A stretch of 20,495 bases of DNA from a bacterium (GCA_043779265.1 JAYWEM010000112.1:1-20495); one strand, 5' to 3'; shown: positions 1-17,465, counted from the stretch's first letter. Translations and numbers: made by a program. Notes: generated by a model from the sequence alone, not told the origin.

Positions 1-1
1 T

Positions 2-184
2 CCGTTCGACCGCACGGTGGGCACGGGCAACGCGTGGGAGGACATCGCCACGTATGTGCCTGCGCCGGCTCCGGCGGCCAAGGCGGGCATCGTCGCCTAC
101 GCCGACTCGGCAGCGCTCAAGTACGCGATCGCGGGCCGCGGCAAGACGGCTGCTCTGTCGATCGTCCTCAGCAGCGGTCAGTAA
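2..184 (+). CDS. Type IV pilin, C-terminal part (5' end outside window)
   Basis: Not in the ORF track. Reading from base 2 gives PFDRTVGTGNAWEDIATYVPAPAPAAKAGIVAYADSAALKYAIAGRGKTAALSIVLSSGQ* (TAA 182-184). It shares the PFDRT, GIVAY(A/G)DS and YxIxGxGK blocks with the two downstream pilins. Confidence 0.9.
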   Translation, partial: PFDRTVGTGNAWEDIATYVPAPAPAAKAGIVAYADSAALKYAIAGRGKTAALSIVLSSGQ

Positions 185-189
185 TCCAG

Positions 190-224
190 AGGGAGGGTGG
201 CGAGAGCCACCCTCCCTGCTTCTT
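190..224 (+). terminator. Strong stem-loop after the first pilin (terminator, attenuator or mRNA stabiliser)
   Basis: AGGGAGGGTGGC-GAGA-GCCACCCTCCCT (190-217): a perfect 12-bp stem with a GNRA loop, 5 nt after the stop, followed by an interrupted U-tract GCTTCTT. Confidence 0.65.
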
Positions 225-284
225 CCCCGGCCCGAGAGGGGGCGCCGGCCAGGATCCCATGCACGCCTGCGAGGAGGTTCAGAG

Positions 285-725
285 ATGGTTCGCCAAGAGC
301 GCGGCTTCACGCTGATCGAGCTGATGATCGTCGTCGTGATCATCGGTGTACTCGCGGCGATCGCCATCCCCAACTTCATCTCGATGCAGGATCGCGCGAA
401 GGAAGGCTCCACCAAGTCCAACATGCACAGCTTCCAGTTGGCGGCGGAGGATTGGGGCGTCGACCACGACTCGTTCTACCCGACGCACGCGGACAGCGTC
501 GCCAGCCGACTCCCCAGTGTCACCTATCGGTTCGTGAACCCGTTCGATCGAACAGCGGGATCCGGAAGCTCCTACGAGAACCAGGGCACGTGGGCCTCGC
601 CGATCGCGACTTCGGGCCGCTCCGGCATCGTCGCCTATGCCGATTCCTCACAGCGGATCTACCAGATCGTCGGGCACGGCAAGAACAATGACTTCAACAT
701 CGTCCTGACCAGCGGGACGAACTGA
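285..725 (+). CDS. pilA: Type IVa pilin (PilA-like), 146 aa
   Basis: SD GAGGAGG at 271-277 and ATG at 285. Class III prepilin leader MVRQERG|FTLIELMIVVVIIGVLAAIAIPNF with E5 and P22. Confidence 0.93.
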   Translation: MVRQERGFTLIELMIVVVIIGVLAAIAIPNFISMQDRAKEGSTKSNMHSFQLAAEDWGVDHDSFYPTHADSVASRLPSVTYRFVNPFDRTAGSGSSYENQGTWASPIATSGRSGIVAYADSSQRIYQIVGHGKNNDFNIVLTSGTN

Positions 726-915
726 TCCCGAGAGGATCCGACATGCACCGCTCGCTGGACCATCGCGGCTTCACGCTCATCGAGCTGATGATCGTCGTCG
801 TGATCATCGGGATCCTGGCGGCGATCGCGATCCCCAATTTCATCTCGATGCAGGACCGCGCGCGAGAAGGTGCCGTCAAGTCGAACATGCACACGTTCCA
901 GCTGGCGGCGGAGGA
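300..915 (+). repeat. Diverged direct repeat between pilin 5' ends (300-451 vs 764-915)
   Basis: Hand alignment: 152 nt, ungapped, 19 mismatches (about 87% identical), with a 32-nt perfect block ATCGAGCTGATGATCGTCGTCGTGATCATCGG. Confidence 0.85.
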
Positions 916-1189
916 CTACGCGGTCCAGTACGACAGCCGCTATGCGACCAGCGCCACCGTGGTGGTCAGCCGATCGAGCGCGCTGGGCGGGAACTTCCGC
1001 AACCCGTTCGACCGCACGACGGGCGTGAACAACGCCTACCGGAATCAGGCCGCGTGGACCCTGCCGCTCGCAGTCGGCTCCACCCGGGCCGGCATCGTCG
1101 CCTACGGGGACTCGGCCGGCATGCAGTATCAGATCGCCGGTCGGGGCAAGACGGGCGACCTGCCGCTCCTGCTGCTCGGCACCAACTGA
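743..1189 (+). CDS. pilA: Type IVa pilin (PilA-like paralogue), 148 aa
   Basis: SD AGAGGA at 731-736. Leader MHRSLDHRG|FTLIELMIVVVIIGILAAIAIPNF; paralogous to 285..725 over its full length. Confidence 0.93.
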   Translation: MHRSLDHRGFTLIELMIVVVIIGILAAIAIPNFISMQDRAREGAVKSNMHTFQLAAEDYAVQYDSRYATSATVVVSRSSALGGNFRNPFDRTTGVNNAYRNQAAWTLPLAVGSTRAGIVAYGDSAGMQYQIAGRGKTGDLPLLLLGTN

Positions 1190-1192
1190 CGT

Positions 1193-1211
1193 CTGCGCCC
1201 TTGGGGCGCAG
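1193..1211 (+). terminator. Hairpin immediately after the third pilin
   Basis: CTGCGCCC-TTG-GGGCGCAG, an 8-bp stem 3 nt after TGA. There is no U-tract, so intrinsic termination is uncertain. Confidence 0.4.
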
Positions 1212-1237
1212 GGCGTGGCGAGCAGGGCGCCCGTGAG

Positions 1238-1253
1238 CGGCACGCAGATTGCA
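1238..1253 (+). promoter_or_regulatory. Candidate sigma-54 (RpoN) -24/-12 promoter
   Basis: CGGCACGCAGATTGCA versus the consensus TGGCACG-N4-TTGCW, with exact GG-N10-GC spacing (GG 1239-1240, GC 1251-1252). It is intergenic and points toward the ABC gene. Confidence 0.75.
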
Positions 1254-1357
1254 ATCCGGACTCCGGTGCTTTCGCCCCACGACGGGATGTGCCGCGACAG
1301 GGTTGTCGCACAAGGAGTTGTACCGGTGCCATTGGCGCCGGTGGTCCCGGAGAGCCG

Positions 1358-2398
1358 ATGCCCTCGATCAATCCCAGTTCAGAGCGGCAGGTCCTTGGCC
1401 ATGCGCCGTCCGCGGCCGTGGGCGCGGCGCAGGCTCCGGCCGTCCGGATCCGTGGACTGACCAAGGTCTATCGCCACCCGTGGACGATGCGCAGCGTCGT
1501 GGGGCTGGAGCCGCTCGACCTCGAGGTGCAACGAGGCGAGGTGTTCGGCTATCTCGGGCCCAACGGCGCCGGGAAGACGACCACGCTCAAGATCCTGACC
1601 GGACTGCTGAAGCCCTCGGCGGGGGAGGCCCACCTCCTCGGCGAGTCCATCGAACGCGTCAGCAGTCGCGCCCGGCTCGGTTTCCTGCCCGAGCAGCCCT
1701 ACTTCTTCGACCACCTCAACGGCATCGAGTACCTGGAGTTCGCGGCACGACTCTCGGGCATGCACGCGCATGAGGCGACGCACGCGGCCCGAGGCTGGTT
1801 CGCGCGCGTCGGCTTGAGCGGCCGAGAGCGGCTCGCGCTGCGCAAGTTCTCGAAGGGGATGCTGCAGCGACTCGGACTCGCCGCGGCCCTGGTCCACGCA
1901 CCCGATGTGGTGATCCTCGATGAACCGATGAGCGGGCTCGATCCCTTCGGCCGCCGCGATGTCCGCGACCTGATCCTCGAGCAGCGTCAGCGGGGCGTCA
2001 CGGTGCTGTTCTCCTCGCACATCCTGCCCGATGTCGAGCTCCTGTGTGACCGCGTCGCGATCCTGCTCAAGGGGCGTCTCGAGCGGGTCGCCACGGTGAG
2101 CGAGCTGACCGAGCAGAGTGGAGGGCGCGTCGAGATCCGTTGCGCGAGTGGCGTGATCGCCGAATGGCCCGAGCAATGGCAGCTGCAGCTCGAGCGTCGC
2201 GATGGTCCGGGCGAGACGATCTTCGTGCTCGAGGAGCCGGGGCGTCTCCAGGAGGTCCTGGAGCATCTGCTGAGGCAGCGCGTCGAGGTGCGGGCCGTGA
2301 CTCCGCATCGCCGATCGCTCGAGGAGCTGTTCATGGCCGCAGCCGAGGGCGCGGCGATCCAGGCGCAGCCGGCAGCTGGCGAGCGGAGGTCGGCATGA
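1358..2398 (+). CDS. ABC transporter ATP-binding protein (Myxococcus PilH / Geobacter XapD-like)
   Basis: Walker A GPNGAGKTT, signature FSKGMLQR, Walker B VILDEP, H-loop SSHIL, C-terminal SLEELF. Start placed at ATG 1358 after GGAGAG; the exact start is uncertain. Confidence 0.92.
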   Translation: MPSINPSSERQVLGHAPSAAVGAAQAPAVRIRGLTKVYRHPWTMRSVVGLEPLDLEVQRGEVFGYLGPNGAGKTTTLKILTGLLKPSAGEAHLLGESIERVSSRARLGFLPEQPYFFDHLNGIEYLEFAARLSGMHAHEATHAARGWFARVGLSGRERLALRKFSKGMLQRLGLAAALVHAPDVVILDEPMSGLDPFGRRDVRDLILEQRQRGVTVLFSSHILPDVELLCDRVAILLKGRLERVATVSELTEQSGGRVEIRCASGVIAEWPEQWQLQLERRDGPGETIFVLEEPGRLQEVLEHLLRQRVEVRAVTPHRRSLEELFMAAAEGAAIQAQPAAGERRSA

Positions 2399-3159
2399 TG
2401 GCACTGCTGATCGCGCAGAACACTTTCCGCGAGGCCATTCGCGACCGCGTCCTCGCCGGAGTCATCGTCATGGGGCTGGTGCTGCTGGCTCTGACGCAGT
2501 TGGCGCGGCCGCTTGCCATGGGCGAGGGACTGCGCTTGACCGTCGACCTCGGGCTCTCGAGCATCTCGCTGCTGGGTCTGATCGTCGTCCTGATGGTCGG
2601 CACGAGCCTGGTGGGCAAGGAGATCGAGCGGCGCACGATCTACAATCTGCTGTCGCGTCCTCTGCCGAGACCGGTGTACCTCGTCGGCAAGTGGGCTGGC
2701 CTGACGCTCTCGTTGTGGACCGTCTCGACGAGCCTCGGCGTCGCGCTCTGGCTGCTGCTCGCGGTGCAGGGCCAGGGGGACTACGGAGCCTCGCTGGCGC
2801 AGGCGCTCTATCTCGCCAGCCTCGAGCTGAGTGTGATCACCGCCATCGCCACGATGTTCTCCGCGCTGTCGACGCCGGTGCTCTCCGCGCTCTACACGCT
2901 GGGCGCCTATCTGGCCGGGCAGTGGTCGGGGGATCTGCGCGCGTTCGCTGCACAGGCTCCGGACGTGGTTCGCTGGACGCTCGAGGCGATGGCGAACCTC
3001 GTCCCGAACTTGACGCTGTTCAACATGCGGACGCTCGCGGCCGAAGGCGCGCTCACGAGTCCCGAGCACCTGGGGCTCGCGACGCTCTATGCGCTTCTTT
3101 ACTCCGGTTGTGTGCTCGCACTCGGTGCTGCGGCGTTCGAGTCGAGGGACTTCAAGTGA
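2395..3159 (+). CDS. ABC-2-type permease (PilI-like)
   Basis: ATGA overlap with the ATPase stop. IAQNTFREAIRDR, KEIERRTIYNLLSRPLPRPVYLVGK, several hydrophobic helices, C-terminal FESRDFK. Confidence 0.88.
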   Translation: MMALLIAQNTFREAIRDRVLAGVIVMGLVLLALTQLARPLAMGEGLRLTVDLGLSSISLLGLIVVLMVGTSLVGKEIERRTIYNLLSRPLPRPVYLVGKWAGLTLSLWTVSTSLGVALWLLLAVQGQGDYGASLAQALYLASLELSVITAIATMFSALSTPVLSALYTLGAYLAGQWSGDLRAFAAQAPDVVRWTLEAMANLVPNLTLFNMRTLAAEGALTSPEHLGLATLYALLYSGCVLALGAAAFESRDFK

Positions 3160-3896
3160 CCGTCGTCCGCCGCCGCATGCTGACCGCGTGGGCCGTTGCT
3201 CTCGTCCTCGGCAGCGGTGCGTTCCTCATCGCCGCCCACTCGGCGCGGGCACTGCCGCGGCCTTCGCCGCTTGATGAACTGGCGTACTACCCCTCGGGGC
3301 AGGCGCTGCGTCCGGCGACGCTGGGGCACGCGGAGTCCGCTGCCGATCTCGCATGGATCCGCGCCGTCCAGTACTACGGCGAGCATCGGCTGACTGACAA
3401 CCGCTACGAACATCTGGCGCACGTCTTCGACATCCTCACGTCGCTGTCGCCCGGTTTCGAGAGCGCCTACGTGTTCGGGGCGTTCGCTCTGGCACAGGAG
3501 GGTCGCGACTTCGATCGCGCCTATGCGCTGCTCGAGAAGGGCATCGCCGAGAACCCGCGCTCGGGCCGTCTCTCCTTCGAGATGGGGTTCCTCCACTACG
3601 TGCGCCCCGGAGGGCGAGACCTGCCCCAGGCGGCCGAGTACTTCGAGCAGGCCGCGCGGCTGCCGGGTGGACCCCCGAACGCAGCACGTTTCGCGGCCTT
3701 CGCCCGGCAGCACAGCGGGGACCTGGCCGCGGCCTATCAGCTCTGGAAGGGCATCCACGACGGTTCGGTCAATCCGATGCTCCAGGACATCGCCCGGCGC
3801 GAGATGGACCGCATCGAGGAGGCCATCGTGACCGGCCGCCGCGAGCGGGCGGTCTCCCGGTTGACCACCCCGGTCGTGCTCATCAAGTCGAGGTGA
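3156..3896 (+). CDS. Membrane-anchored TPR-like protein (PilG/XapA-like, pilin-associated)
   Basis: GTGA overlap (alternative ATG at 3177). N-terminal hydrophobic helix, ADLAWIRAVQYYG, and TPR-like helices AYALLEKGIAENP and AAEYFEQAARLP. Confidence 0.75.
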   Translation: MTVVRRRMLTAWAVALVLGSGAFLIAAHSARALPRPSPLDELAYYPSGQALRPATLGHAESAADLAWIRAVQYYGEHRLTDNRYEHLAHVFDILTSLSPGFESAYVFGAFALAQEGRDFDRAYALLEKGIAENPRSGRLSFEMGFLHYVRPGGRDLPQAAEYFEQAARLPGGPPNAARFAAFARQHSGDLAAAYQLWKGIHDGSVNPMLQDIARREMDRIEEAIVTGRRERAVSRLTTPVVLIKSR

Positions 3897-4094
3897 AACG
3901 CGGCGGTACGGGCAGGTTGCAAGGCCCCGTGAAGAAAGCGCTTCAGAACGGAAGTGGAAGGGACGAAAGCAGGGAAGGCAGGCAGGGTGGGGACCGCTCC
4001 GGTCCGATGCCCTCGAGGTCGCGGACGCAAGCTTCCGGATGCTCGCCGGTGAGCATGTCGCCCAGGACCCGCACCGCATCCTAGGGAGTGAACC

Positions 4095-5150
4095 ATGCTC
4101 TTCGGCAAGAAGCAGTCGCTCGTCGGTCTGGACATCGGGAGCCACACCGTCAAGGTGGTGGAACTCGAGCAGCTGTCCAACAAGACCTACAAGCTGACGA
4201 ACTGGGGCATCTCGCAGCCGCTCGCTGAAGCGATCGTGGACGGCGAGATCATGGATCGCCAGCTGGTGACCGATGCGATCTCCAATCTGATGGAGTCGCG
4301 CGGCATCAAGGCCAAGAACGTCGTGGCCGCCGTCAGTGGACGCGCTGTCATCGTGAAGAAGATCACGATGAACAAGCTCTCTGCGGATGACGCCAAGCAG
4401 GCCATTTACTGGGAGGCTGAGCAGCACGTCCCGTACGACATCAACGACGTGTCACTCGACTTCAACATCCTCGGCGACGCGCCGAACGACGACAAGCAGA
4501 TGCAGGTCCTGCTCGTCGCAGCCAAGAAGGACATGGTGATGTCCTTCAGCGACCTCATCCGCGAGTCCGGCCTGCAGCCGAGCGTCGTGGACGTGGACTC
4601 GTTCGCGGCGCAGAACGCCATCGAGGCGAACTACGACTTCGCCCCGGAGGAGGTCGTCGCGATCCTGAACATCGGATCCGAGATGACCAACATCAACATC
4701 GTGCAGGCGGGCGTGCCGTACTTCACCAAGGATCTCCAGGTGGGCGGCAACACGTTCACCGAGGCCGCCCAGCGCAAGTTCAACCTCAGTCAGGCCGAGG
4801 CCGCCGCAGCGGTGCGGGGTGAGTCCGGTTCTGGCCTCGAGGTGTCTCCGGTGATCGAGCAGGCGTGCGAGGGCATCGCGACCGCACTCGAGCGTGCACA
4901 GGCCTATCTCCGCACGGCCGGCGAGGCGGGCAACATCAGCCGCATCCTCCTGTGTGGCGGAAGCTCGATGACCCCGGGCGTGCTCGAGTTCCTGCAGCGC
5001 CGCTTCCAGGCGCCGACGGACCTCGTCAATCCGCTGCAGCGAATCCAGTACGACCCCTCGCTCTTCGCGGGGCAGGACGTGATGAAGGTTGCGCCCCTTC
5101 TCACGGTCGGAATCGGCCTGGCGCTCCGCCGACAGGGGGACAAGCGATGA
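4095..5150 (+). CDS. pilM: Type IV pilus assembly protein PilM
   Basis: SD GGGAG. Actin-like VGLDIGSHTVKVVEL, EAEQHVPYDI, VLLVAAKK, ILNIGS, ILLCGG, VGIGLALR. Confidence 0.96.
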   Translation: MLFGKKQSLVGLDIGSHTVKVVELEQLSNKTYKLTNWGISQPLAEAIVDGEIMDRQLVTDAISNLMESRGIKAKNVVAAVSGRAVIVKKITMNKLSADDAKQAIYWEAEQHVPYDINDVSLDFNILGDAPNDDKQMQVLLVAAKKDMVMSFSDLIRESGLQPSVVDVDSFAAQNAIEANYDFAPEEVVAILNIGSEMTNINIVQAGVPYFTKDLQVGGNTFTEAAQRKFNLSQAEAAAAVRGESGSGLEVSPVIEQACEGIATALERAQAYLRTAGEAGNISRILLCGGSSMTPGVLEFLQRRFQAPTDLVNPLQRIQYDPSLFAGQDVMKVAPLLTVGIGLALRRQGDKR

Positions 5151-5719
5151 TCCGCGTCAATCTCCTGCCGCGTGAGGAGAAGGCCCAGCAGCATTCGATG
5201 TCGTTCGATTTCAAGATCGGCGACATGGTCGTCCCGGGTGTGGTGCTGGGCGCCGCAGCGCTGGTCATCGCCGGCACGGCGATGTCGCAGCAGTCGCGCT
5301 CCTCGCAACTGGGGACGTCGATCGCGCAGGTGGAGCAGGAGTCCCGTGCGCTCGCGCCGCAGATCGCGCGAGTCAATCAGCTCGCCCAGAAGCGAGCGGA
5401 GCTGGATCTCCGCATGGGCGTGATCAACAAGCTCGAAAGAGGAAGGACGCAGAGCGTGCGCCTCATGGATGAACTCGCCCGCTGCGTGCCGGACCACCTC
5501 TGGATGACGAGTACCAGCCAGGATGGCGGGGGATCTCTCACGCTGGAGGGGGTCACTTATTCCAACCTGGTCGTGTCGGACTTCATGTCGCGTCTCGAGC
5601 GTTCGCCGATGTTCGCGAACGTCGAACTCGATGTGGCCGAGCGCGGCCTGGTCACCGACAAACAAGTCGTTCGGTTCCGCGTGAATTGCGCGGTGACGCC
5701 GGACGAGCAGGCCAACTGA
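5147..5719 (+). CDS. pilN: Type IV pilus assembly protein PilN
   Basis: ATGA overlap. PilM-binding motif MIRVNLLP, TM helix, coiled coil, LMDELARCVPDHLWMT, MSRLERSPMF. Confidence 0.93.
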   Translation: MIRVNLLPREEKAQQHSMSFDFKIGDMVVPGVVLGAAALVIAGTAMSQQSRSSQLGTSIAQVEQESRALAPQIARVNQLAQKRAELDLRMGVINKLERGRTQSVRLMDELARCVPDHLWMTSTSQDGGGSLTLEGVTYSNLVVSDFMSRLERSPMFANVELDVAERGLVTDKQVVRFRVNCAVTPDEQAN

Positions 5720-5735
5720 AAGGAGGGTGGAGACA

Positions 5736-6356
5736 ATGAGCAAGATGGATCTTCGCAGCCCCGCCACCCAGAAGACCCTTCTGGCGATCCTGTTCGCTGG
5801 CGGTGCGCTCGGGGTGTTCTTCGGGACCCACCTGGTTCCGTTCGGATACCAGAACGCGAACGAGCGGATCTCGGTTCTCAAGGGCGACTACGAGAAGAAG
5901 TCCACGGAACTGGCGCGCGCTCGCGCATCGGTCGCGGATCTCCCTCGCTTCGAGGCCGAGTACGAGCAGCTGACGCAGCGCTGGGAGCTCGCTTCCGAGT
6001 TGCTGCCCACCGACAAGCAGACTGCAGCGTTGCTTCGCAAGATCACGCTCGCAGGTCAGCAGTCGGGCGTGAACTTCGTGATGTTCAAGCCGAACGGCTC
6101 CAAGCCGCTCGAGTACCACACCGAACTGCCCGTGACGATCTCGGTGACGGGTGGGTACCACCAGGTGGGTTCGTTCCTCGCCGAGCTGTCGAACATGCGC
6201 CGCATCGTGACGGTCTCGAATCTGCGCCTGCTGACGAACACCAAGCAGGACGGATCGAGCACCACGGCTGAGTTCGTCGCATCGGCCTACAGTCTCAACA
6301 CCGCGCCGGTCGCTCCGGCCGCCAAGAAGGAGGACGCCAGTGGCCGGAAGTCCTGA
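5736..6356 (+). CDS. pilO: Type IV pilus assembly protein PilO
   Basis: SD AAGGAGG at 5720-5726 fits ATG 5736. TM helix, coiled coil, ELLP, ELPVTISVTGGYHQVGSFLAELSNMRRIVTV. Confidence 0.94.
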   Translation: MSKMDLRSPATQKTLLAILFAGGALGVFFGTHLVPFGYQNANERISVLKGDYEKKSTELARARASVADLPRFEAEYEQLTQRWELASELLPTDKQTAALLRKITLAGQQSGVNFVMFKPNGSKPLEYHTELPVTISVTGGYHQVGSFLAELSNMRRIVTVSNLRLLTNTKQDGSSTTAEFVASAYSLNTAPVAPAAKKEDASGRKS

Positions 6357-7062
6357 TGGCGGTCTGGGCGAGAAGCTCAAGAGCGCCGTCGTCCAGCGCG
6401 TGATCGGCGCCGTCGTTCTCGTGATCACCGCCGTCATCGTGGGCGGTGTGAAGTGGGGACTCGGTGGCCAGAGCCCGAGCTCGACGGGGGCCAACGCCTC
6501 GTCGGCCGTGGCGGCCCAGGAGACGGACTCGGAGGAGGCCGCATCGCCAGCCGGTGCTGTGGCGCATGCGAACCCCAACGTGGCCCCGATCGCGGGTATG
6601 CAGATCAATCCCCCGGCGACGACCCAGCCGATGGCCGATCTCGCCTCGACGGCGAGCAACTCGGCCCCCGTGGTGTCGTCCGTCAAGCCGGATCCCAAGC
6701 GTGCCTCAGTGCCCGCACATCTCGATGCCCATCTCACCTACCAGTACAACGCGCTCGGCCGCCGGGATCCATTCAATGCGCTCGTGGGCGGGGACTTCAT
6801 CGGTGCCGATGTCGGCGGCGATGCGCCTCCGGATCCGGGCGGCATGAAGGTCGTCGGCATCGTGTGGGGTGCGACTGACCAGTTCGCCATGGTCGAGGAC
6901 GTGCGTGGCAACAGCTACGTGCTGCGCAAGGGTGACAAGGTGCAGAACGGTTACATCGAGAGCCTGAAGCGCGACGCGGTGCTCGTCACCGTGACGACTG
7001 ATGGGCAGAGCCAGACGGTGTCGATCCCGCTCGAGCGGAAGGGAGATTCGAATGCGCGCTGA
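6340..7062 (+). CDS. pilP: PilP-like protein with an N-terminal TM anchor and low-complexity linker
   Basis: GTG start after AAGGAGGA. YQYNALGRRDPF motif and C-terminal beta domain MKVVGIVWG...AMVED..GNSYVLRKGD. Lies between pilO and pilQ. Confidence 0.82.
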   Translation: MAGSPDGGLGEKLKSAVVQRVIGAVVLVITAVIVGGVKWGLGGQSPSSTGANASSAVAAQETDSEEAASPAGAVAHANPNVAPIAGMQINPPATTQPMADLASTASNSAPVVSSVKPDPKRASVPAHLDAHLTYQYNALGRRDPFNALVGGDFIGADVGGDAPPDPGGMKVVGIVWGATDQFAMVEDVRGNSYVLRKGDKVQNGYIESLKRDAVLVTVTTDGQSQTVSIPLERKGDSNAR

Positions 7063-8407
7063 CAAGTCCCTCTTGGGACTCATTCTGATGGCCAGCCTCA
7101 CGCTGGCGATGTCTGCCGCGCCGGCCACGGCGCAGCAGTCGACGGCGATGTCGCAGGTGGGCATCCAGCGCACCGGTTCGGGGAGCTTCAGCCTCGATGT
7201 CGAGGGGGCGGAGATCCGTACCGTCCTCAAGGCGATCAGCGAGTTCGCTGGCCGTTCGATCGTGCCTTCGGCCAACACCAAGGGCATCGTGCGGGTGTCG
7301 CTCAAGAACGTGACCTGGCAGGACGCGCTCAAGGCGATCCTGCGCAGCAACGGGCTCGATTACGTCGAGGAGGGCTCGATCATCCGCGTGGATGAGACCT
7401 CCAAGCTCAACAGCGAGAAGGTGGAGCGCGAGACCGCCAACGCCCGCACGCTGGAACTGCTGCCGCTTGAGACGCGCATCCTCAAGCTGAACTTCGCGAA
7501 CGCTCCGGAGATGGTCGGTCCGCTGAGCGGCTCGCTCTCCAAGCGCGGCGTGATCCAGGTTGAGAAGCGCACCAACTCGCTGATCATCTCCGACCTGCCG
7601 GCGAATCTCGACCGGTTGGCGTCGATGGCCGAGACGCTCGACTCCGAGATCCCGCAGATCGAGATCACGGCGAAGCTGGTCGACGTGGACGCCTCGGCGC
7701 TCCGCGGAATCGGCATCGATTGGAACGTCGGGCCGACGGATGGGGCGAATGCGGAGTTCTTCGACGGCACACCGTTGCCGCCGAACTTCCTGAGGCCGGG
7801 CAACGACAATGATCAAAGGCTCGGTGGCCAGGCGAATACGTCGATCGCCGGCCCGTCGCACACGTTCACCTATGGCATCGCCAAGAGCTGGGGTTTCATC
7901 GAAGCTCAGCTCTCGATGCTCGAGGAGAATCGCAAGGCGAACATCATCTCGAATCCGCGCATCACGACGGTGGACAATCGTGAGGCCCGGATCATCGTCG
8001 GCCAGAAGATCCCGCTCATCATCCAGGACGTGGCCGGCAACCCGGTCACGCAGCTGACGACGATCGGCATCCAGCTTCGCGTGACGCCGCATCTGACGTC
8101 GGACAAGAAGATCATCATGGATCTGCACCCGGAGGTCAGCGACCTCTCGACGCAGTCCACGGTGCAGGGCGGCATCATCATCAACACGAGCGAGGCTGAC
8201 ACGCGCGTGATGGTGGACGATGGCCAGACTGCAGTGATCGGCGGCCTCATCCGCACGAACTCGTCGACGGTGCGACGCGGCTTGCCCATCCTCAAGGACC
8301 TCCCGCTCATCGGTGCGCTGTTCGGCTCGACCACCACGGTGGACCAGAACCGCGAGCTGATCATCTTCGTGACACCGCGCCTGATCCGTACGACGGCCGA
8401 CAACTGA
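7052..8407 (+). CDS. pilQ: Type IV pilus secretin PilQ (short form, 451 aa)
   Basis: SD GGGAG and a signal peptide. N0/STN SLDVEGAEIRTVLKAI...LKNVTWQDAL, N-domain EKRTNSLII, secretin core PQIEITAKLV, SNPRITTVDNREARI, GQTAVIGGL, GLPILKDLPLIGALF, ELIIFVTPR. Confidence 0.96.
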   Translation: MRADKSLLGLILMASLTLAMSAAPATAQQSTAMSQVGIQRTGSGSFSLDVEGAEIRTVLKAISEFAGRSIVPSANTKGIVRVSLKNVTWQDALKAILRSNGLDYVEEGSIIRVDETSKLNSEKVERETANARTLELLPLETRILKLNFANAPEMVGPLSGSLSKRGVIQVEKRTNSLIISDLPANLDRLASMAETLDSEIPQIEITAKLVDVDASALRGIGIDWNVGPTDGANAEFFDGTPLPPNFLRPGNDNDQRLGGQANTSIAGPSHTFTYGIAKSWGFIEAQLSMLEENRKANIISNPRITTVDNREARIIVGQKIPLIIQDVAGNPVTQLTTIGIQLRVTPHLTSDKKIIMDLHPEVSDLSTQSTVQGGIIINTSEADTRVMVDDGQTAVIGGLIRTNSSTVRRGLPILKDLPLIGALFGSTTTVDQNRELIIFVTPRLIRTTADN

Positions 8408-11077: not shown

Positions 11078-11580
11078 GACGGCAGCGCGTCGCGCTGTTT
11101 CCCGGCAGCTTCGATCCGTTCACCAATGGCCATCTTGACCTGGCGCGCCGTGCGGCGGCCATCTTCGATCGCGTCATCGTCGCGGTCGCGCACAACCCGG
11201 CCAAGTCCTGCCTGTTCACGCCGGAGGAGCGAGTCGAGTTGATCGAGGGTTCACTGAAGGGCACGCGCGGGGTCACCGCGATGCACTTCTCCGGGCTCGT
11301 CGTCGAGTGCGCTCGCAGCGTCGGCGCGCACGTGATGGTTCGCGGGCTGCGAGCGGTGAGTGACTTCGAGTTCGAGTTCCAGATGGCGCTGATGAATCGC
11401 AGGCTCAGCCCCGATCTCGAAGTGGCGTTCCTGATGCCGAGTCAGGAGTACACGTATCTCAACTCGACGCTCGTCAAGGAAGTGGCGCGTCACGGTGGCC
11501 GAATCCAGGGGCTCGTTCCACGCAACGTGGAGGTCGCGCTTCAGAAGCGATTCCGTGCCGAGGCGAGGTCGGCTCGGTGA
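11074..11580 (+). CDS. coaD: Pantetheine-phosphate adenylyltransferase
   Basis: FPGSFDPFTNGHLD, RGLRAVSDFEFEFQMALMNR, STLVKEVA. The rsmD-coaD pairing is common. Confidence 0.97.
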   Translation: MRRQRVALFPGSFDPFTNGHLDLARRAAAIFDRVIVAVAHNPAKSCLFTPEERVELIEGSLKGTRGVTAMHFSGLVVECARSVGAHVMVRGLRAVSDFEFEFQMALMNRRLSPDLEVAFLMPSQEYTYLNSTLVKEVARHGGRIQGLVPRNVEVALQKRFRAEARSAR

Positions 11581-12578
11581 GTGCGACGCTCGAACGCATC
11601 CGCAGGCTCGCCACTGCGCGGCCGCAGCGTCTGCTGCTGGCCGAGGCGGACGATCCACGCGTGGTGCGGGCGGCTGCACGTCTGGCGCGTGAAGGTCGCG
11701 CGCGCGTCTCCCTGATCGGGGACGCAACGGTGGCGCGGGCGACCGCACGCTCGGCGGACGCGAATCTGCGCGGGGTCGAACTGGTCGAGTCCACCGACTC
11801 CACGATCCTGTCTGCCACGCGTGCCGCGCTCGTCGCGGCGCGTGGCGAACGACTGACGGGTGAGGCGCTCGATCGCGCCGCGGCCGACCCGGTGTTCCAG
11901 GCCGCCGCACGCGTGAAGGCGGGGGAGGCCGATGCGTTCGTGGCGGGCGCGGTCCGGACGACGGCTGATGTGCTGCGTTCGGCGCTGTGGCTGATCGGTC
12001 TCGCGGCCGGCGTCAAGAGCGTCAGCTCGTTCTTCCTGATGGTGCTCGACGAGGGGGCCGGCAAGGAGCGCCCACTCACGTTCGCCGACTGCGGCGTTCT
12101 CCCCGATCCGACGGCCGAGCAGTTGGCCGAACTCGCATGCCTGGCCGCCGATCACCATCGGCAGCTGACGCAGGAGGTGCCGCATGTGGCGATGCTGTCG
12201 TTCTCGACGCGCGGCAGCGCGGAGCACCCGCGTGTGATCAAGGTGCGCGAGGCCACGGCGATCGCCCGCGCCCGACGCCCCGACCTCCACATCGATGGCG
12301 AGTTGCAGGCGGATGCGGCGCTCGTTCCCGAGATCGGCAGTCGCAAGGCCCCCGACTCGGTCGTGGCCGGATATGCGAATGTGCTCGTGTTCCCGGATCT
12401 CGATGCCGGCAACATCGGCTACAAACTGGTGCAGCGCCTCGCGGGCGCTGCGGCCTATGGCCCCATTCTGCAAGGCCTGTCGCGTCAGGCGAATGACCTC
12501 TCGCGAGGCTGCAGCAGCGACGACGTGGTGGAGGTCTCCACCATCGCCTGTGCGCTCGCCGCCGCGCGCACCCCCTAA
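11577..12578 (+). CDS. pta: Phosphate acetyltransferase (short PTA_PTB form)
   Basis: VSSFFLM, FADCGV, MLSFSTRGSA, DGELQADAA, FPDLDAGNIGYKLVQRL, NDLSRGCS. Confidence 0.93.
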   Translation: MSATLERIRRLATARPQRLLLAEADDPRVVRAAARLAREGRARVSLIGDATVARATARSADANLRGVELVESTDSTILSATRAALVAARGERLTGEALDRAAADPVFQAAARVKAGEADAFVAGAVRTTADVLRSALWLIGLAAGVKSVSSFFLMVLDEGAGKERPLTFADCGVLPDPTAEQLAELACLAADHHRQLTQEVPHVAMLSFSTRGSAEHPRVIKVREATAIARARRPDLHIDGELQADAALVPEIGSRKAPDSVVAGYANVLVFPDLDAGNIGYKLVQRLAGAAAYGPILQGLSRQANDLSRGCSSDDVVEVSTIACALAAARTP

Positions 12579-12599: not shown

Positions 12600-12896
12600 A
12601 TGCCGACCTACGTCTATCGTTGCCCGGAGGAGCACACCTTCGAGCTCGCGCACAGCATCAAGGATGAGTCGCCGCGGAACTGCCCCGAGTGCGGCGCCGT
12701 GGCCAAGCGCGTTCCGGCGGGAGGCGCGGGCCTGCTCTTCAAGGGAACGGGCTTCTACATCACCGACTACCGCAGCAGCGGCTATCAGAAGAAGGCGAAG
12801 GCCGACGGCGCTGGCGACAAGCCGGCTGCCGCAGCCGGAGGTGAGGCGGCCAAGCCGAGCCCGCCTCCGCCCGCCAAGGGAAGTGGCGAAGCGTGA
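12600..12896 (+). CDS. FmdB-family zinc-ribbon protein
   Basis: SD GAGGAGG. MPTYVYRCPEEHTF...CPECG...FKGTGFYITDY followed by a low-complexity tail. Confidence 0.92.
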   Translation: MPTYVYRCPEEHTFELAHSIKDESPRNCPECGAVAKRVPAGGAGLLFKGTGFYITDYRSSGYQKKAKADGAGDKPAAAAGGEAAKPSPPPPAKGSGEA

Positions 12897-14722
12897 GTCG
12901 GAGCACGAGCCATCTGACTGCCGAACTGCTGCGGGCCGACGAGTCCCCCTGGGGGGCACCCGGCTCCTGGCGCCCGCCGCGCGCCGACCACGTCGTGCTC
13001 GACGAGCACGATGGCACGGTCGCGCTGCTCGCGTATCAGGCGTTGGGGGGCGGTCGGATCGCGTGCGAGCGTGCGCTCCTCGCGAGCGCAGCTGCGCCCT
13101 CGGGTCCCGATGCGAGTGAGGACCTGCGCTATCTGCAGGCCATGGCCGCACACGCCGGCATCGCATTCGCCCGTCCCGGTTCGGCTCCCAGTGGTGCCCT
13201 GCATCGACGCGCCTTCGCGGCGCCCGGCAGCGCCGTCTGCGGCCTCGGCCACTCAGTCGCGGGAGCCGGTGCCTACGGCATGCTGGCGTGGTCGGTGGGA
13301 GCCCTCGAGTGCGCCACCGCACTCGCCGGACACGCGCTGCCGTTCGCACGACCTCCCGTCATCGGCGTGCGCCTCGATGGCGCGCCGCCCGTCGGCGTGA
13401 GCGGACTCGACGTGCTGGTCGCCGTGCTCGATGCGCTGGGGCCACTCGCCCGCGGCGCGGTGCTCGAGTGCCATGGCGACGGCATCGCGTCGATCGAGAT
13501 GGACGACCGCGTCGCGTTCGCCGCGCATGTTCCGCGCGGCGGCGCTCGTGCCGCGGTGTTCCCGGCCGATGACCGGACGCGTGCGACTCTTCGCGCGCAG
13601 GGTCGCGACGAGGACTGGCGCCGCTTCGAGGGAGGTTCGCGCGGTTTCGATCATGAAGTGAGCCTCGATCTCGCCGTCGTTCGCCCGCGGGCGCTGCCCA
13701 TCGTGGAGCGCGTGATCATCGGGTCCGAGGCCGAGGACGATGCGGTGCGCCGCGTCCGCTTCGGACTGGAGCGCGCGGATCGCTCGCTACTCGGTGTCCT
13801 CGAATGGGTCCCGGGCGGCCGGATCCAGCGCGACCTGCTTCGCGCCGACGGAACGCTCGCCGCGCTCGAGGCGCTGGGCGTCCTCGTGCATGACGTCGGG
13901 GCCCACGTGCAGCCGAGAGGTGCGGCCTGGCTCGGTTCGGATGCGGCGTCGATCGCCGACTCGGTCTCGCCCGCGGGTGCGGTCGCGTTCGCGCTCGGAC
14001 ACGCTCGAGTGGATCCCGTTCTCGAGTGGATGGCGGCTCCGAGGCTCGAGCGCGGCACGCCGCTCGCCTCGGACACGTTCGTGCCACCCGCCGAAGCAGG
14101 GAGCGAGCCCCTTCCGGGTGAGCGCCACCGCATCCCCTCCCCGACCCGCGGCCATCGCGAGCGCTCTCGCGGCGTCGCGGTGTCGCGAGTGGCGGACGGC
14201 GCCGGCGTGTCGTGGGTCCCGAAGGGGCCTCGTACCCACGCGGTGCGCGCCGAGGGCGGCGCCCTTGCGGAATGGGTGCTCCGCGAACAGGATCCGGGGG
14301 CCGCTGCGAGGGCCATGGCGCATGGCGGTGGTTTCGTGCTCGCGGGCACGGCGATGTCGGGCGACGAGGTCGATGCCCTGTCCGCACGGGCGCTCGCGGC
14401 GCTGGGCGTGAACATCGTGCTCGCCGACCGGATCGCCGCGGCGCCCGCGAGGCAGCTCGCCCTGCATGGTGTCCTGCCGCTGACCTGGGAGCACCGCCTA
14501 CAGGCGCCGCTCATCCAGGTCGGGGATGAACTCGAAGTGACGAATCGAAGCGGAGACCTCGAGTCCGGCGCGCGCGTCAGCGTGCGCGACCTGACACGAG
14601 GGGTGACGCTCGCTGCGCGCGCCGAACTGGATGCGCCGCTGGTGGCCATCGCCCGACAGGGCGGATGGCTCGCGACCTGTACCGCTGCGCGAGAGCGTGA
14701 GCGAGGAGGGAGAACCGAGTGA
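12893..14722 (+). CDS. Aconitase-family homologue, apparently catalytically inactive (609 aa)
   Basis: Colinear with short-type aconitate hydratases (GIAFARPG, VFPADDRTRATLRAQGR, VSLDL, RVIIGS, VSPAGAVAFAL, swivel-domain GGGFVLAG...LGVNIVLA...HGVLPL, GGWL), but active-site motifs are substituted. GTGA overlaps at both ends. Confidence 0.82.
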   Translation: MSRSTSHLTAELLRADESPWGAPGSWRPPRADHVVLDEHDGTVALLAYQALGGGRIACERALLASAAAPSGPDASEDLRYLQAMAAHAGIAFARPGSAPSGALHRRAFAAPGSAVCGLGHSVAGAGAYGMLAWSVGALECATALAGHALPFARPPVIGVRLDGAPPVGVSGLDVLVAVLDALGPLARGAVLECHGDGIASIEMDDRVAFAAHVPRGGARAAVFPADDRTRATLRAQGRDEDWRRFEGGSRGFDHEVSLDLAVVRPRALPIVERVIIGSEAEDDAVRRVRFGLERADRSLLGVLEWVPGGRIQRDLLRADGTLAALEALGVLVHDVGAHVQPRGAAWLGSDAASIADSVSPAGAVAFALGHARVDPVLEWMAAPRLERGTPLASDTFVPPAEAGSEPLPGERHRIPSPTRGHRERSRGVAVSRVADGAGVSWVPKGPRTHAVRAEGGALAEWVLREQDPGAAARAMAHGGGFVLAGTAMSGDEVDALSARALAALGVNIVLADRIAAAPARQLALHGVLPLTWEHRLQAPLIQVGDELEVTNRSGDLESGARVSVRDLTRGVTLAARAELDAPLVAIARQGGWLATCTAARERERGGRTE

Positions 14723-15810
14723 CGCATCGCATCACATTGATCCCGGGAGATGGGATCGGACCGGAACTCACGGCCGCCACCACGCGTGCCATCGAAGCGA
14801 CCGGCGTCGCGATCGAGTGGGATGTGCAGACGGCGGGCGCCGATGTCACTGTCGACGAGGGCACGCCGCTCCCGGCGCGCGTGCTCGAGTCGCTGCGCCG
14901 CAACGGCGTCGGACTGAAGGGTCCGCTGACCACACCGGTCGGTGCGGGCTTCCGCTCGGTCAACGTCGCCATCCGCACCGAGCTGGATGTCTACGCCAGT
15001 GTTCGGCCGTCGCGGACCTACCTGGGGATCCCCGAGTCGGCGAAGGATGTCGATCTGGTCATCATCCGCGAGAACACCGAGAGCGAGTACGTCGGGATCG
15101 AGTTCGAGAACGGCTCCCCCGAGGCCGCGGAACTGCGCGACTTCGCGCAGAAGCACGTCGGCAGGAGCTTTCGCGAGGATTCCGCCGTCGCCCTGCGGCC
15201 GATCTCGGTGACGGGGTCGCGCCGGATCGTGGAGTACGCGTTCCGATTCGCCCGCCAGCACGATCGCAAGAAGGTGACGGCGATCCACAAAGCCAACATC
15301 CTCAAGCACACGGATGGCCTGTTCCTCGAAGTCGCGCGGTCGGTCGCCGGAGCGCATCGCGACATCGAGTTCTCCGACATGATCGTGGACGCGGCATGCA
15401 TGAATCTGGTGCAGCGTCCGCAGCAGTTCGATGTGATGGTGATGCCGAATCTCTATGGCGACATCCTGAGCGACTTGTGTGCCGGGCTGGTCGGTGGCCT
15501 CGGCGTCGCGCCGGGCGCGAATCTCGGAGAACATGCCGCGGTGTTCGAACCGGTGCACGGCAGCGCCCCCGGTTTCAAGGGTTCGGGGCTCATGAATCCC
15601 ACTGCGATGATGCTGTCGGCCGCGATGATGCTGCATCACATCGAGGAAGGCGCCGCTGCACGGCGACTCGAAGCCGCCGTCGAGCGTGTGCTGGGTGAGG
15701 GCACATCGGTCACGCGCGATCTACTGGAACCGGCGAGGCAATCGGACGGTGCGACGACCGAGCAGATGACCGACGCCGTCATCGCGGCCATGCGCCAGGC
15801 AGGGGGCTGA
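14719..15810 (+). CDS. icd: Isocitrate dehydrogenase (isocitrate/isopropylmalate dehydrogenase family)
   Basis: IPGDGIGPE, LKGPLTTPVGAGFRSVNVAIR (isocitrate-type S-x-N-xxx-R), RENTE, HKANILK, NLYGDILSD, EPVHGSAP. Confidence 0.9.
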   Translation: MTHRITLIPGDGIGPELTAATTRAIEATGVAIEWDVQTAGADVTVDEGTPLPARVLESLRRNGVGLKGPLTTPVGAGFRSVNVAIRTELDVYASVRPSRTYLGIPESAKDVDLVIIRENTESEYVGIEFENGSPEAAELRDFAQKHVGRSFREDSAVALRPISVTGSRRIVEYAFRFARQHDRKKVTAIHKANILKHTDGLFLEVARSVAGAHRDIEFSDMIVDAACMNLVQRPQQFDVMVMPNLYGDILSDLCAGLVGGLGVAPGANLGEHAAVFEPVHGSAPGFKGSGLMNPTAMMLSAAMMLHHIEEGAAARRLEAAVERVLGEGTSVTRDLLEPARQSDGATTEQMTDAVIAAMRQAGG

Positions 15811-15811
15811 C

Positions 15812-16825
15812 GTGCTCGTCGATCTCGCACGCATCCACTGCATCGCCGGCAAGGGGGGCGCTGGGTGCATCAGCTTCCGCCGGGAGAAGTTCGTCCCCAA
15901 GGGTGGCCCCGACGGCGGCAACGGCGGCCGGGGCGGTAGCGTGTTCTTCGAGGTCGATCCCCACAAGCGGACGCTGCTCGACTGCCGTGAGCAGCCGCGC
16001 TGGAAGGCACAGGGCGGCAAGAACGGCTCGGGCAGCAACAAGACAGGTCGCGATGGCCTCGACCTGCACATCAAGGTGCCGCCGGGGACGATCGTGCGGA
16101 ACATGGAGACCGGCGAGGTGATCGTGGATCTGGTCGAGCCGGGCCGGCAGGTCTGTGTCGCCAAGGGCGGGCGCGGAGGACGTGGCAATGCCCGATTCGC
16201 GACCTCGACGCATCAGGCCCCGCGCCGCGCGGACCCGGGTGAGGCCGGTCAGGAGCTCCAAGTGGAACTGGAGCTCAAGTTGATCGCCGACGTCGGGCTG
16301 GTCGGCCTGCCGAACGCCGGGAAGTCCACGCTCCTCTCGCGGATCACTCGTGCGACACCGAAGATCGCCGACTATCCGTTCACGACGCTCGAGCCGAACC
16401 TCGGGATCGTCGCGCTCGATGCCGAACGCAGTTTCCTCGTTGCCGACCTGCCTGGTCTGATCGAGGGTGCGAGCGAGGGCAAGGGGCTCGGTCACCAGTT
16501 CCTCCGCCACGTCGAGCGCACGCGTGTGCTGGCATTCCTGATCGATGCCTCGAGCGAGGATGCGGCGGCGACGCTCGCTCTGCTCGAGCGCGAGACGGAG
16601 TCCTTCAGCCTCACCATGGCCGAGAAGCCCCGACTCGTGATACTCAGCAAGGCGGACCTGCTCCCTCCGGAGGATCGCGCCGATGCCCCGGCGCGGGCCG
16701 GGATGCCGCAGGCCCTGGTCATGAGCGCCCAAACGGGCGACGGAGTCCGCCCGATGCTCGAGGCGCTCTGGTCCCACATCATCGCCGCCGAGAAGCTGGA
16801 AGAGGAGAACGAGTCCGATGGATGA
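15812..16825 (+). CDS. obgE: GTPase ObgE/CgtA
   Basis: SFRREKFVPKGGPDGGNGGRGG, ELELKLIADVGLVGLPNAGKSTLL, ADYPFTTL, DLPGLIEGA, SKAD. Confidence 0.98.
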   Translation: MLVDLARIHCIAGKGGAGCISFRREKFVPKGGPDGGNGGRGGSVFFEVDPHKRTLLDCREQPRWKAQGGKNGSGSNKTGRDGLDLHIKVPPGTIVRNMETGEVIVDLVEPGRQVCVAKGGRGGRGNARFATSTHQAPRRADPGEAGQELQVELELKLIADVGLVGLPNAGKSTLLSRITRATPKIADYPFTTLEPNLGIVALDAERSFLVADLPGLIEGASEGKGLGHQFLRHVERTRVLAFLIDASSEDAAATLALLERETESFSLTMAEKPRLVILSKADLLPPEDRADAPARAGMPQALVMSAQTGDGVRPMLEALWSHIIAAEKLEEENESDG

Positions 16826-17465
16826 TCGCAATGCGAGCCGCACACAGGACGCCATGAACGCGCGCGGGCTCGCGGGCAAGCGCGACTATGTGCGCTCGCT
16901 CGAGCAGCGGACCGATGCCGAGTCCCTGTCGCTGCTCGTCGAGTGCCTGTGCGATGAATCGTGGTACCTGCGCGAACTGGCGGAGGTGGCCCTGCAGCGG
17001 ATGGGCGAACGAGCGGCTGATGCGCTGGTGCCGATCCTCGAGACCGGCCTGTGGTACTCCCGCGCGAGCGCGGCACGCGTGCTCGGTCGGCTGGGCTATG
17101 GACCGGCGGTCTCGGGCATGCTGCGGCTCTGCGGCGATGACAACGGCACCGTGGCGCTCGCGGCCCGCGAATCACTCGCGGATCTCGCACAGCGGGGCGG
17201 CTCCGTGCGGATCGCGTGGGAACTCGTGCGACTGACGCCCGAGGAACGTCGCGGGCGGCTCTCGGGCTTCTCCGCTCTGCACCGCCCGCTCGGCGAGCGG
17301 TTGGAGCGATTGATCCGCAACGAGGAACTGATGTCATCCGAAGCCCCCGATGCCCTGCGCGATGACAGTCCCATCGTCCGCGCCAGTGAGGAGGGGGTGG
17401 AGTGGGAGATCATCACCGGACCGCCGGTCTCGCGGTCCTCCGGTCCCGGTACGAGCGACGCGTGA
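16818..17465 (+). CDS. HEAT-repeat (PBS lyase-like) protein
   Basis: Three repeats: LVECLCDESWYLRELAEVAL, LVPILETGLWYSRASAARVLGRLG, MLRLCGDDNGTVALAARESL. Overlaps obgE by 8 nt. Confidence 0.8.
   Translation: MDDRNASRTQDAMNARGLAGKRDYVRSLEQRTDAESLSLLVECLCDESWYLRELAEVALQRMGERAADALVPILETGLWYSRASAARVLGRLGYGPAVSGMLRLCGDDNGTVALAARESLADLAQRGGSVRIAWELVRLTPEERRGRLSGFSALHRPLGERLERLIRNEELMSSEAPDALRDDSPIVRASEEGVEWEIITGPPVSRSSGPGTSDA

Follow-up and report, generated by a model that had tools for sequence, protein, structure and literature searches.

A catalytically dead short-type aconitase kept across a family of Candidatus Eisenbacteria and the possible role of its swivel domain

What keeps an aconitase gene open when its active site has been replaced? 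The question is posed by a stretch of 20,495 nucleotides (GCA_043779265.1 JAYWEM010000112.1:1-20495), here called the window, from a bacterium whose family, all uncultured, is placed in Candidatus Eisenbacteria by the names of relatives. An ORF at 12893..14722 (+) encodes 609 residues with no internal break, at a GC content of 72-73%. Its GTG start overlaps the stop codon of an upstream gene for an FmdB-family zinc-ribbon protein (12600..12896, +), and its TGA overlaps the GTG of a downstream gene of the isocitrate dehydrogenase family (idh; 14719..15810, +). Further out, the genes for phosphotransacetylase (pta; 11577..12578, +) and the ObgE GTPase (15812..16825, +) serve as conserved synteny markers on the upstream and downstream side, respectively. 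Between 10400 and 17600, neither a promoter nor a terminator match was obtained. A sequence-only reading of the window had taken the ORF for a full-length short-type aconitase with coupled start and stop, and the unbroken frame, the family resemblance and both overlaps are borne out. Several family members carry the source label "aconitate hydratase", so that metabolic reconstructions may count a step that this gene cannot supply.

An aconitase fold with an emptied active site

The best family match is the PRK07229 short aconitase, at 146.4 bits against an NCBIfam cut-off of 612, and the Pfam Aconitase profile matches only residues 75-242. Aconitase X (PF04412) has no match in the 609-residue protein and weak matches in 4 of 44 relatives. 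An AlphaFold2 (AF2) model built with 44 relatives as input (pLDDT 90.5, pTM 0.92) shows the three alpha/beta domains and the swivel domain that characterize the aconitase superfamily. It superposes end to end on pig aconitase 5acn (Foldseek E 2.5e-35; Z 34.3, rmsd 4.3, 591 residues aligned) and also matches IRP1 (3snp; Z 23.9, rmsd 6.4, 571 aligned), the two comparisons that the sequence-only reading had proposed as a check. Domains 1-3 (LeuC-like, about residues 1-385; 12893..14047, +), which contain the emptied cluster and substrate cleft, match 4kp2 (Z 34.8, rmsd 3.1, 363 aligned, model range 6-374), and the swivel domain (LeuD-like, about residues 420-604; 14150..14704, +) matches 2pkp (Z 19.7, rmsd 2.6, 167 aligned). 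Structures of the aconitase A type rank far above the AcnX structure 7cnr (Z 15.5, rmsd 5.2, 310 aligned), and aconitase-family clusters are the only ones named in the ESM Atlas. As far as a predicted model can tell, a four-domain short-type aconitase fold is confirmed.

Twenty-two ligand, catalytic and substrate-binding positions were scored, with the numbering checked against 5acn, and a single one is kept. The cluster ligands, C358, C421 and C424 in the pig enzyme, correspond to E279, A337 and Q340. The first lies in IGSEAE, which stands in place of IGSCTN (13718..13735, +), and the other two in DVGAHVQ, which replaces the CxxC loop (13892..13912, +); near this segment (DVGAHV, 13892-13909) the NRNF/GR loop is shortened. 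In the region 13178..13258 (+), GNGICHQ has become GSAPSGA (13178-13198, +; H147 to G101) and GSDSHT has become GLGHSV (13241-13258, +; D165/S166/H167 to G119/H120/S121). In the swivel domain, GDEVDA (14360..14377, +) replaces (Q)GSSRE, with E492 at the position of the catalytic Ser and D494 at that of pig R644, which is R780 in IRP1. S642, which we take to be the catalytic base, and the set presumed to act with it (D100/H101, H147, D165/H167 and E262) are all replaced. Among pig R447, R452, R580 and R644, taken here to be the substrate-binding Arg, only the R580 equivalent survives: this is R452, the sole remaining active-site Arg, in a VPKGPR...R segment (14216..14248, +) together with R447, which is present in 97% of the dead rows described below.

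None of the motifs DHN, CxxC, SCTN, NRN, DSH and SSR occurs in the translation, and none of the five Cys (58, 116, 140, 193 and 596) falls at a ligand column, as had been claimed. The claim that every motif is replaced needs one amendment, the surviving Arg; the motif coordinates given for it were right to within one residue, with the second and third cluster Cys now aligned to A337 and Q340 and S642 to E492, one residue off. On every point tested, the 609-residue protein qualifies neither as an active aconitase nor as a switch of the IRP1 kind.

Distribution, upkeep and loss of catalysis

The dead aconitase is matched in 77 of 89 family genomes (E 1e-15 or better), a count in which related genomes are not independent. 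The other 12 comprise one split syntenic copy (G011), seven genomes with the C-terminal part and four without an obgE match. In those seven, the C-terminal part lies directly upstream of obgE or idh; since most loci were fetched because they matched, these seven obgE-anchored loci provide the fair test of synteny. The order recurring in the fetched loci is rsmD-coaD-pta-fmdB-gene-(idh)-obgE-HEAT-dprA. At the obgE loci of other families, no aconitase match was found within at most 1.5 kb upstream in 16 of 16 cases, a result that holds without G026, one of the 16, and fmdB stands directly before obgE or idh in 15 of the 16.

Frames are well kept. Among 51 extracted frames, with starts picked heuristically, 49 are 601-684 residues long and the other two stop at contig edges. 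Pairwise codon models reject dN/dS = 1 in 19 of 19 pairs with at least 72% identity; many pairwise values are saturated (dS >2), so only the six pairs with dS <=1.3 were relied on, and these give dN/dS of 0.055-0.14. In the G022/G131 pair, the dead aconitase has a dN/dS of 0.10, against 0.06-0.08 for pta, obgE and dprA. Frameshifts break the gene at five loci (G014, G136, G147, G011 and G172); in G014, the only one with neighbours shown to be affected, frameshifts also occur in rsmD, coaD and pta, which suggests an assembly error. With a predicted enzyme fold, missing essential catalytic residues and codon patterns of purifying selection, the predicted protein has the sequence hallmarks of a pseudoenzyme, in the sense reviewed in PMC7435893. 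The earlier proposal of a maintained non-catalytic protein, as opposed to random decay, is upheld by family-wide motif loss, conserved synteny and a dN/dS of about 0.1.

The history of the loss can be followed in a tree. A profile search of 1.84 billion representatives, from which the best 150 were taken, gave 204 rows together with the genome-derived copies, and 161 of these (80% coverage, plus G006) were used. The dead copies group together with a support of 1.0 in 103 rows, of which 97 are distinct and 50 come from genomes, and each row keeps 0-6 sites; 101 rows have no ligand-column Cys and 2 have one, so the motif loss that had been suggested for checking in orthologues is common to the family. 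The clade nests among short-type aconitases (PRK07229/TIGR01342). Its support could be inflated by long branches and Ala-rich composition; synteny backs the orthology independently.

The sister group of the dead clade consists of G006 and P0046. The G006 copy follows pta and fmdB, scores 484 bits over 400 residues against PRK07229 and keeps 15 of 17 covered sites, including all three Cys; it runs off the contig end, so that the catalytic Ser and the patch discussed below lie outside the sequence. P0046 keeps 13 sites and one Cys, and all six patch residues are already present in it. Because G006 has no rpoB or obgE match, SecA and Pta were used for its placement. The SecA tree sets it apart as the sister lineage of all 23 remaining family genomes (97/97), and in the Pta tree it falls outside the other family rows with weaker support, which makes it the earliest-branching family genus sampled. 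As its syntenic copy keeps the three Cys, catalysis was probably lost once, and a single loss after the split of the G006 lineage is the simplest reading. An intact close orthologue had been named beforehand as grounds for refutation, and G006 partly answers to that description; branching outside all dead copies, it dates the loss instead of refuting it. A metagenome scan with P0046 and G006 returned ordinary short aconitases of 38-50% identity and no closer intermediates among the matches listed, the best 80 of 585, which served as the intact comparison set. In G006, a PLP aminotransferase-like gene (L088:788-2023) sits between pta and fmdB; a pta-fmdB gap of like size occurs in L037, L039, L196, L198 and the sister-family loci L327-L337 and is absent in most of the family and in the window.

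With AcnA present in 75 of the 89 genomes of the family, a working short enzyme would be superfluous. In the assembly of the present genome, G000 (92% complete), where the sequence-only reading had suggested looking for a second intact aconitase, AcnA, AcnB and citrate synthase were not found. G001, of the same genus, has both AcnA and citrate synthase, and a missing contig is the likely explanation. G012 (100% complete) has no AcnA match. The only intact aconitase-family gene in the G000 assembly is a swivel-first LeuD-LeuC fusion of 680 residues that adjoins a PLP aminotransferase gene (L001:1441-3483, -; G000:C105). It scores below every NCBIfam large-subunit cut-off, has similar matches across relatives and in G206 (L342), and is possibly a homoaconitase-like enzyme.

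Two further observations concern intact aconitases. In many family genomes (for example at L017, L019, L021, L023 and L024), AcnA frames of 1,400-1,600 residues carry an intein-like in-frame insert of about 500 residues near profile position 487-496. At L106 (G194:C442), a second, intact short-type aconitase lies beside a monomeric-type IDH gene; this genome has the dead copy and no AcnA match, and other genomes of its genus have a 763-residue mitochondrial-type aconitase.

A patch gained on the swivel domain

Where constraint lies in the dead protein is indicated by site rates, for which 98 intact short aconitases served as the reference for the dead clade. Catalytic positions go from a rate of 0.07 in the intact set to 1.36, faster than average, in the dead clade; the low intact value is to some extent built in, as sequences entered that set by retaining the motifs. 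The most slowed sites are L567, E548, R565, R426 and E546, which drop from the fastest rates, about 3.3, to near the slowest, 0.13-0.22. Of the 15 sites that slow most, 11 belong to the swivel domain (p = 7.5e-4 if sites are independent), the only domain that is slower in the dead clade than in the intact enzymes. In ungapped dead rows, E548 and R565 are conserved at 100%, L567 at 99% and R426 at 97%, against 10-28% in intact enzymes, and this shift is seen in spite of the greater diversity among dead rows, which average 35% identity versus 55% for intact ones. All six of R426, R447, E546, E548, R565 and L567 are present in 90 of 103 dead rows and in none of the 98 intact ones.

Within the swivel domain, DSSP on the AF2 model assigns the patch residues to three strands and one hairpin. 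R426 (14168..14170, +) is Arg in 10% of the intact rows; E546 (92%) and E548 belong to a GDELEV strand (14522..14539, +), and R565, L567, T568, R569 and G570 to a VRDLTRG hairpin (14582..14602, +). From the fast rates in intact enzymes and the strand assignments, these residues are taken to be exposed and adjacent. A second, smaller set slower in the dead clade (R230, G237, D241, W242 and R243) lies on the domain-2 helix R230-R243 (13580..13621, +); its constraint is partly structural, as R238 is invariant in the intact enzymes too.

The reading put forward here, and considered rather probable on the sequence comparisons, is that an aconitase pseudoenzyme has become fixed in this lineage and acts by binding, with the swivel patch as its contact surface. 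The family ancestor would have had a short-type aconitase between fmdB and idh/obgE, with AcnA elsewhere in the genome. The patch (R426, E546, E548, R565 and L567, with T568-G570) would have been acquired while most motifs remained, and after the G006 lineage had split off, the redundant active site would have decayed while the patch was held. Its presumably exposed beta-sheet and hairpin would dock a macromolecule that is itself conserved. A protein is the likeliest candidate, be it some other component of the cell or the dead aconitase itself in a dimer-like pairing, and domains 1-3 would persist as a folded body. Of the three roles suggested by the sequence-only reading, which had not seen the patch, scaffolding or binding is the best supported, permanent RNA binding is weakened and IDH partnership is not supported.

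Judging by their distribution, the dead aconitase can do without its neighbours IDH, FmdB and HEAT. The HEAT-repeat protein (16818-17465) is encoded by a gene coupled to obgE, whose position is kept across the order, and has no orthologue in G024 and G180. No FmdB orthologue was found in G024, although this genome (99% complete) keeps the dead aconitase with the full patch, and HEAT and FmdB as required partners are ruled out by it. ObgE, Pta, CoaD, self-association and unlinked partners are the remaining candidates. A complex prediction for the full protein with a second swivel domain (score 0.00) weighs neither for nor against self-association.

Less likely, though the foremost among the alternatives, is a patch that forms a new small-molecule site, making the protein a metabolite sensor or the seat of new cluster-free chemistry. 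Invariance of 97-100% at R426, E548, R565 and L567 in proteins of about 35% identity is tighter than at many protein interfaces, and its combined Arg and Glu residues, joined by H577 and Q572, which have slowed as well, could bind a ligand. The strands and hairpin that carry the patch are, however, hypervariable among intact enzymes, and a pocket is not in evidence; H577 and Q572 are A and T in the 609-residue protein, and no new group of Cys or His is conserved, the only Cys column of any frequency being Ala in this protein.

A permanent apo-aconitase that binds RNA like IRP1 or apo-AcnB and is blind to iron is slightly more doubtful still. Apo-aconitases bind mRNA according to PMC4150767 and PMC7435893, the former of which covers apo-AcnB, and the family is Arg-rich (9.9%), has R447 and W444 in the swivel segment adjoining the cleft and keeps the R580 equivalent in 50 of 103 dead rows. 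Yet the cleft is the least constrained part of the protein, mean net charge in the family is -9 with Lys at 0.3%, and two invariant Glu belong to the patch. Mutation of IRP1 R780 weakens RNA binding about 20-fold, as stated in PMC7003851; an equivalent Arg is found in 37 of 103 dead rows and is Asp (D494) in the 609-residue protein. Searches also yielded no Rfam match and no flanking RNA motif common to the family loci.

The gene might instead be a coupled operon spacer before obgE that merely folds and has no function of its own, the Arg/Glu ladder of the patch being an internal salt-bridge network, as it could be if it acts as a stabiliser. Tight or overlapping spacing with fmdB and obgE/idh throughout the family would suit such a spacer, as would the five split copies and the finding that the majority of the invariant residues of the dead clade are Gly, Pro and core positions common to intact enzymes. 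It is nonetheless improbable: most family genomes lack idh, which occupies the same slot before obgE, and in the genera g2, g9 and g34 some members have it and others do not, so clean deletion there is tolerated; sister groups have fmdB directly before obgE or idh; and spacing leaves the invariance at once-hypervariable sites unexplained.

That the protein supports or regulates the IDH encoded next to it, as in a metabolon scaffold, is very hard to sustain. The stop/start overlap with idh and the existence of an integrative AcnA-IDH model (9a4j) speak for it, and are outweighed by the distribution: no more than 11 of the 89 family genomes have an orthologue of the adjacent IDH (at least 63% identity), genomes lacking it still keep the dead aconitase with its patch, and two sister-family genomes have an idh of the adjacent type and no aconitase. 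Last, decay of a pseudogene held open by its high GC, to which the drift in composition to Ala/Gly/Arg/Pro and the split loci might point, is refuted by the dN/dS values; the intact frames and the invariant sites persisting at 35% mean identity also tell against it.

Relation to other aconitases

The dead protein resembles the PRK07229/TIGR01342 short aconitate hydratase (NF005558) in domain order and, nearly, in length. It differs from this parent family in lacking the cluster Cys and the catalytic Ser, His and Asp, in its shortened cleft loops, in the score quoted above and in the swivel patch, which is complete in none of the intact rows. Aconitase folds in non-catalytic jobs are represented by IRP1, E. 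coli AcnB, B. subtilis CitB and the S. aureus aconitase (PMC4150767). These switch reversibly by cluster gain and loss and keep the active site, whereas the dead protein has no ligands for a cluster, belongs to another subfamily and lacks the R780 equivalent.

The fold match to IRP2 (6vcd) has Z 21.1 and rmsd 4.5 over 478 aligned residues. IRP2 is a vertebrate non-catalytic aconitase paralogue kept for binding; it has no aconitase activity, is of the AcnA type, keeps most motifs and binds RNA in its cleft. The dead protein, unlike IRP2, has an eroded cleft, and its constraint now lies in the swivel domain, the patch-bearing face of which is, to our knowledge, not known to bind anything. Moonlighting by aconitases is familiar as a switch that responds to iron and depends on the active site being intact. 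The present bacterial protein, by contrast, is dead throughout a whole family, in which intermediate forms survive and a few residues mark the new job. Natural sequences can therefore be used to test how a pseudoenzyme originates, with the new function first and the catalytic loss after.

Other dead short-type aconitases from the same parent family (P0090; P0093; P0128; P0096/P0105/P0115; P0122; P0136) have lost most or all motifs; they branch separately and lack the patch. P0128 belongs to the Myxococcales by its cluster. A genome of the Polyangiaceae, G206, has two dead short-type aconitases (L320:5001-7034 and L341, both from Myxococcota) alongside AcnA and AcnB; scored for motifs only, L320 retains 5 of the 22 sites, whereas hardly any are left in L341. 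A literature search, with most subscription journals outside its coverage, returned no description of the present protein and no paper on these other dead copies. It may be suggested, tentatively and from sequences, that short-type aconitases repeatedly yield non-catalytic proteins, that the stages are visible in this family as G006 (three Cys), P0046 (one Cys and the full patch) and the rest (none), and that the end point is a near-indispensable adaptor that docks a core conserved machine via its swivel face. Besides catalysis and iron-sensing RNA binding, the aconitase fold would then have a third kind of role.

Elsewhere in the window, positions 1-8407 hold a Type IV pilus cluster with tandem pilin-like genes, an ABC transporter and pilM/N/O/P/Q-like genes, as read from ORF translations only.
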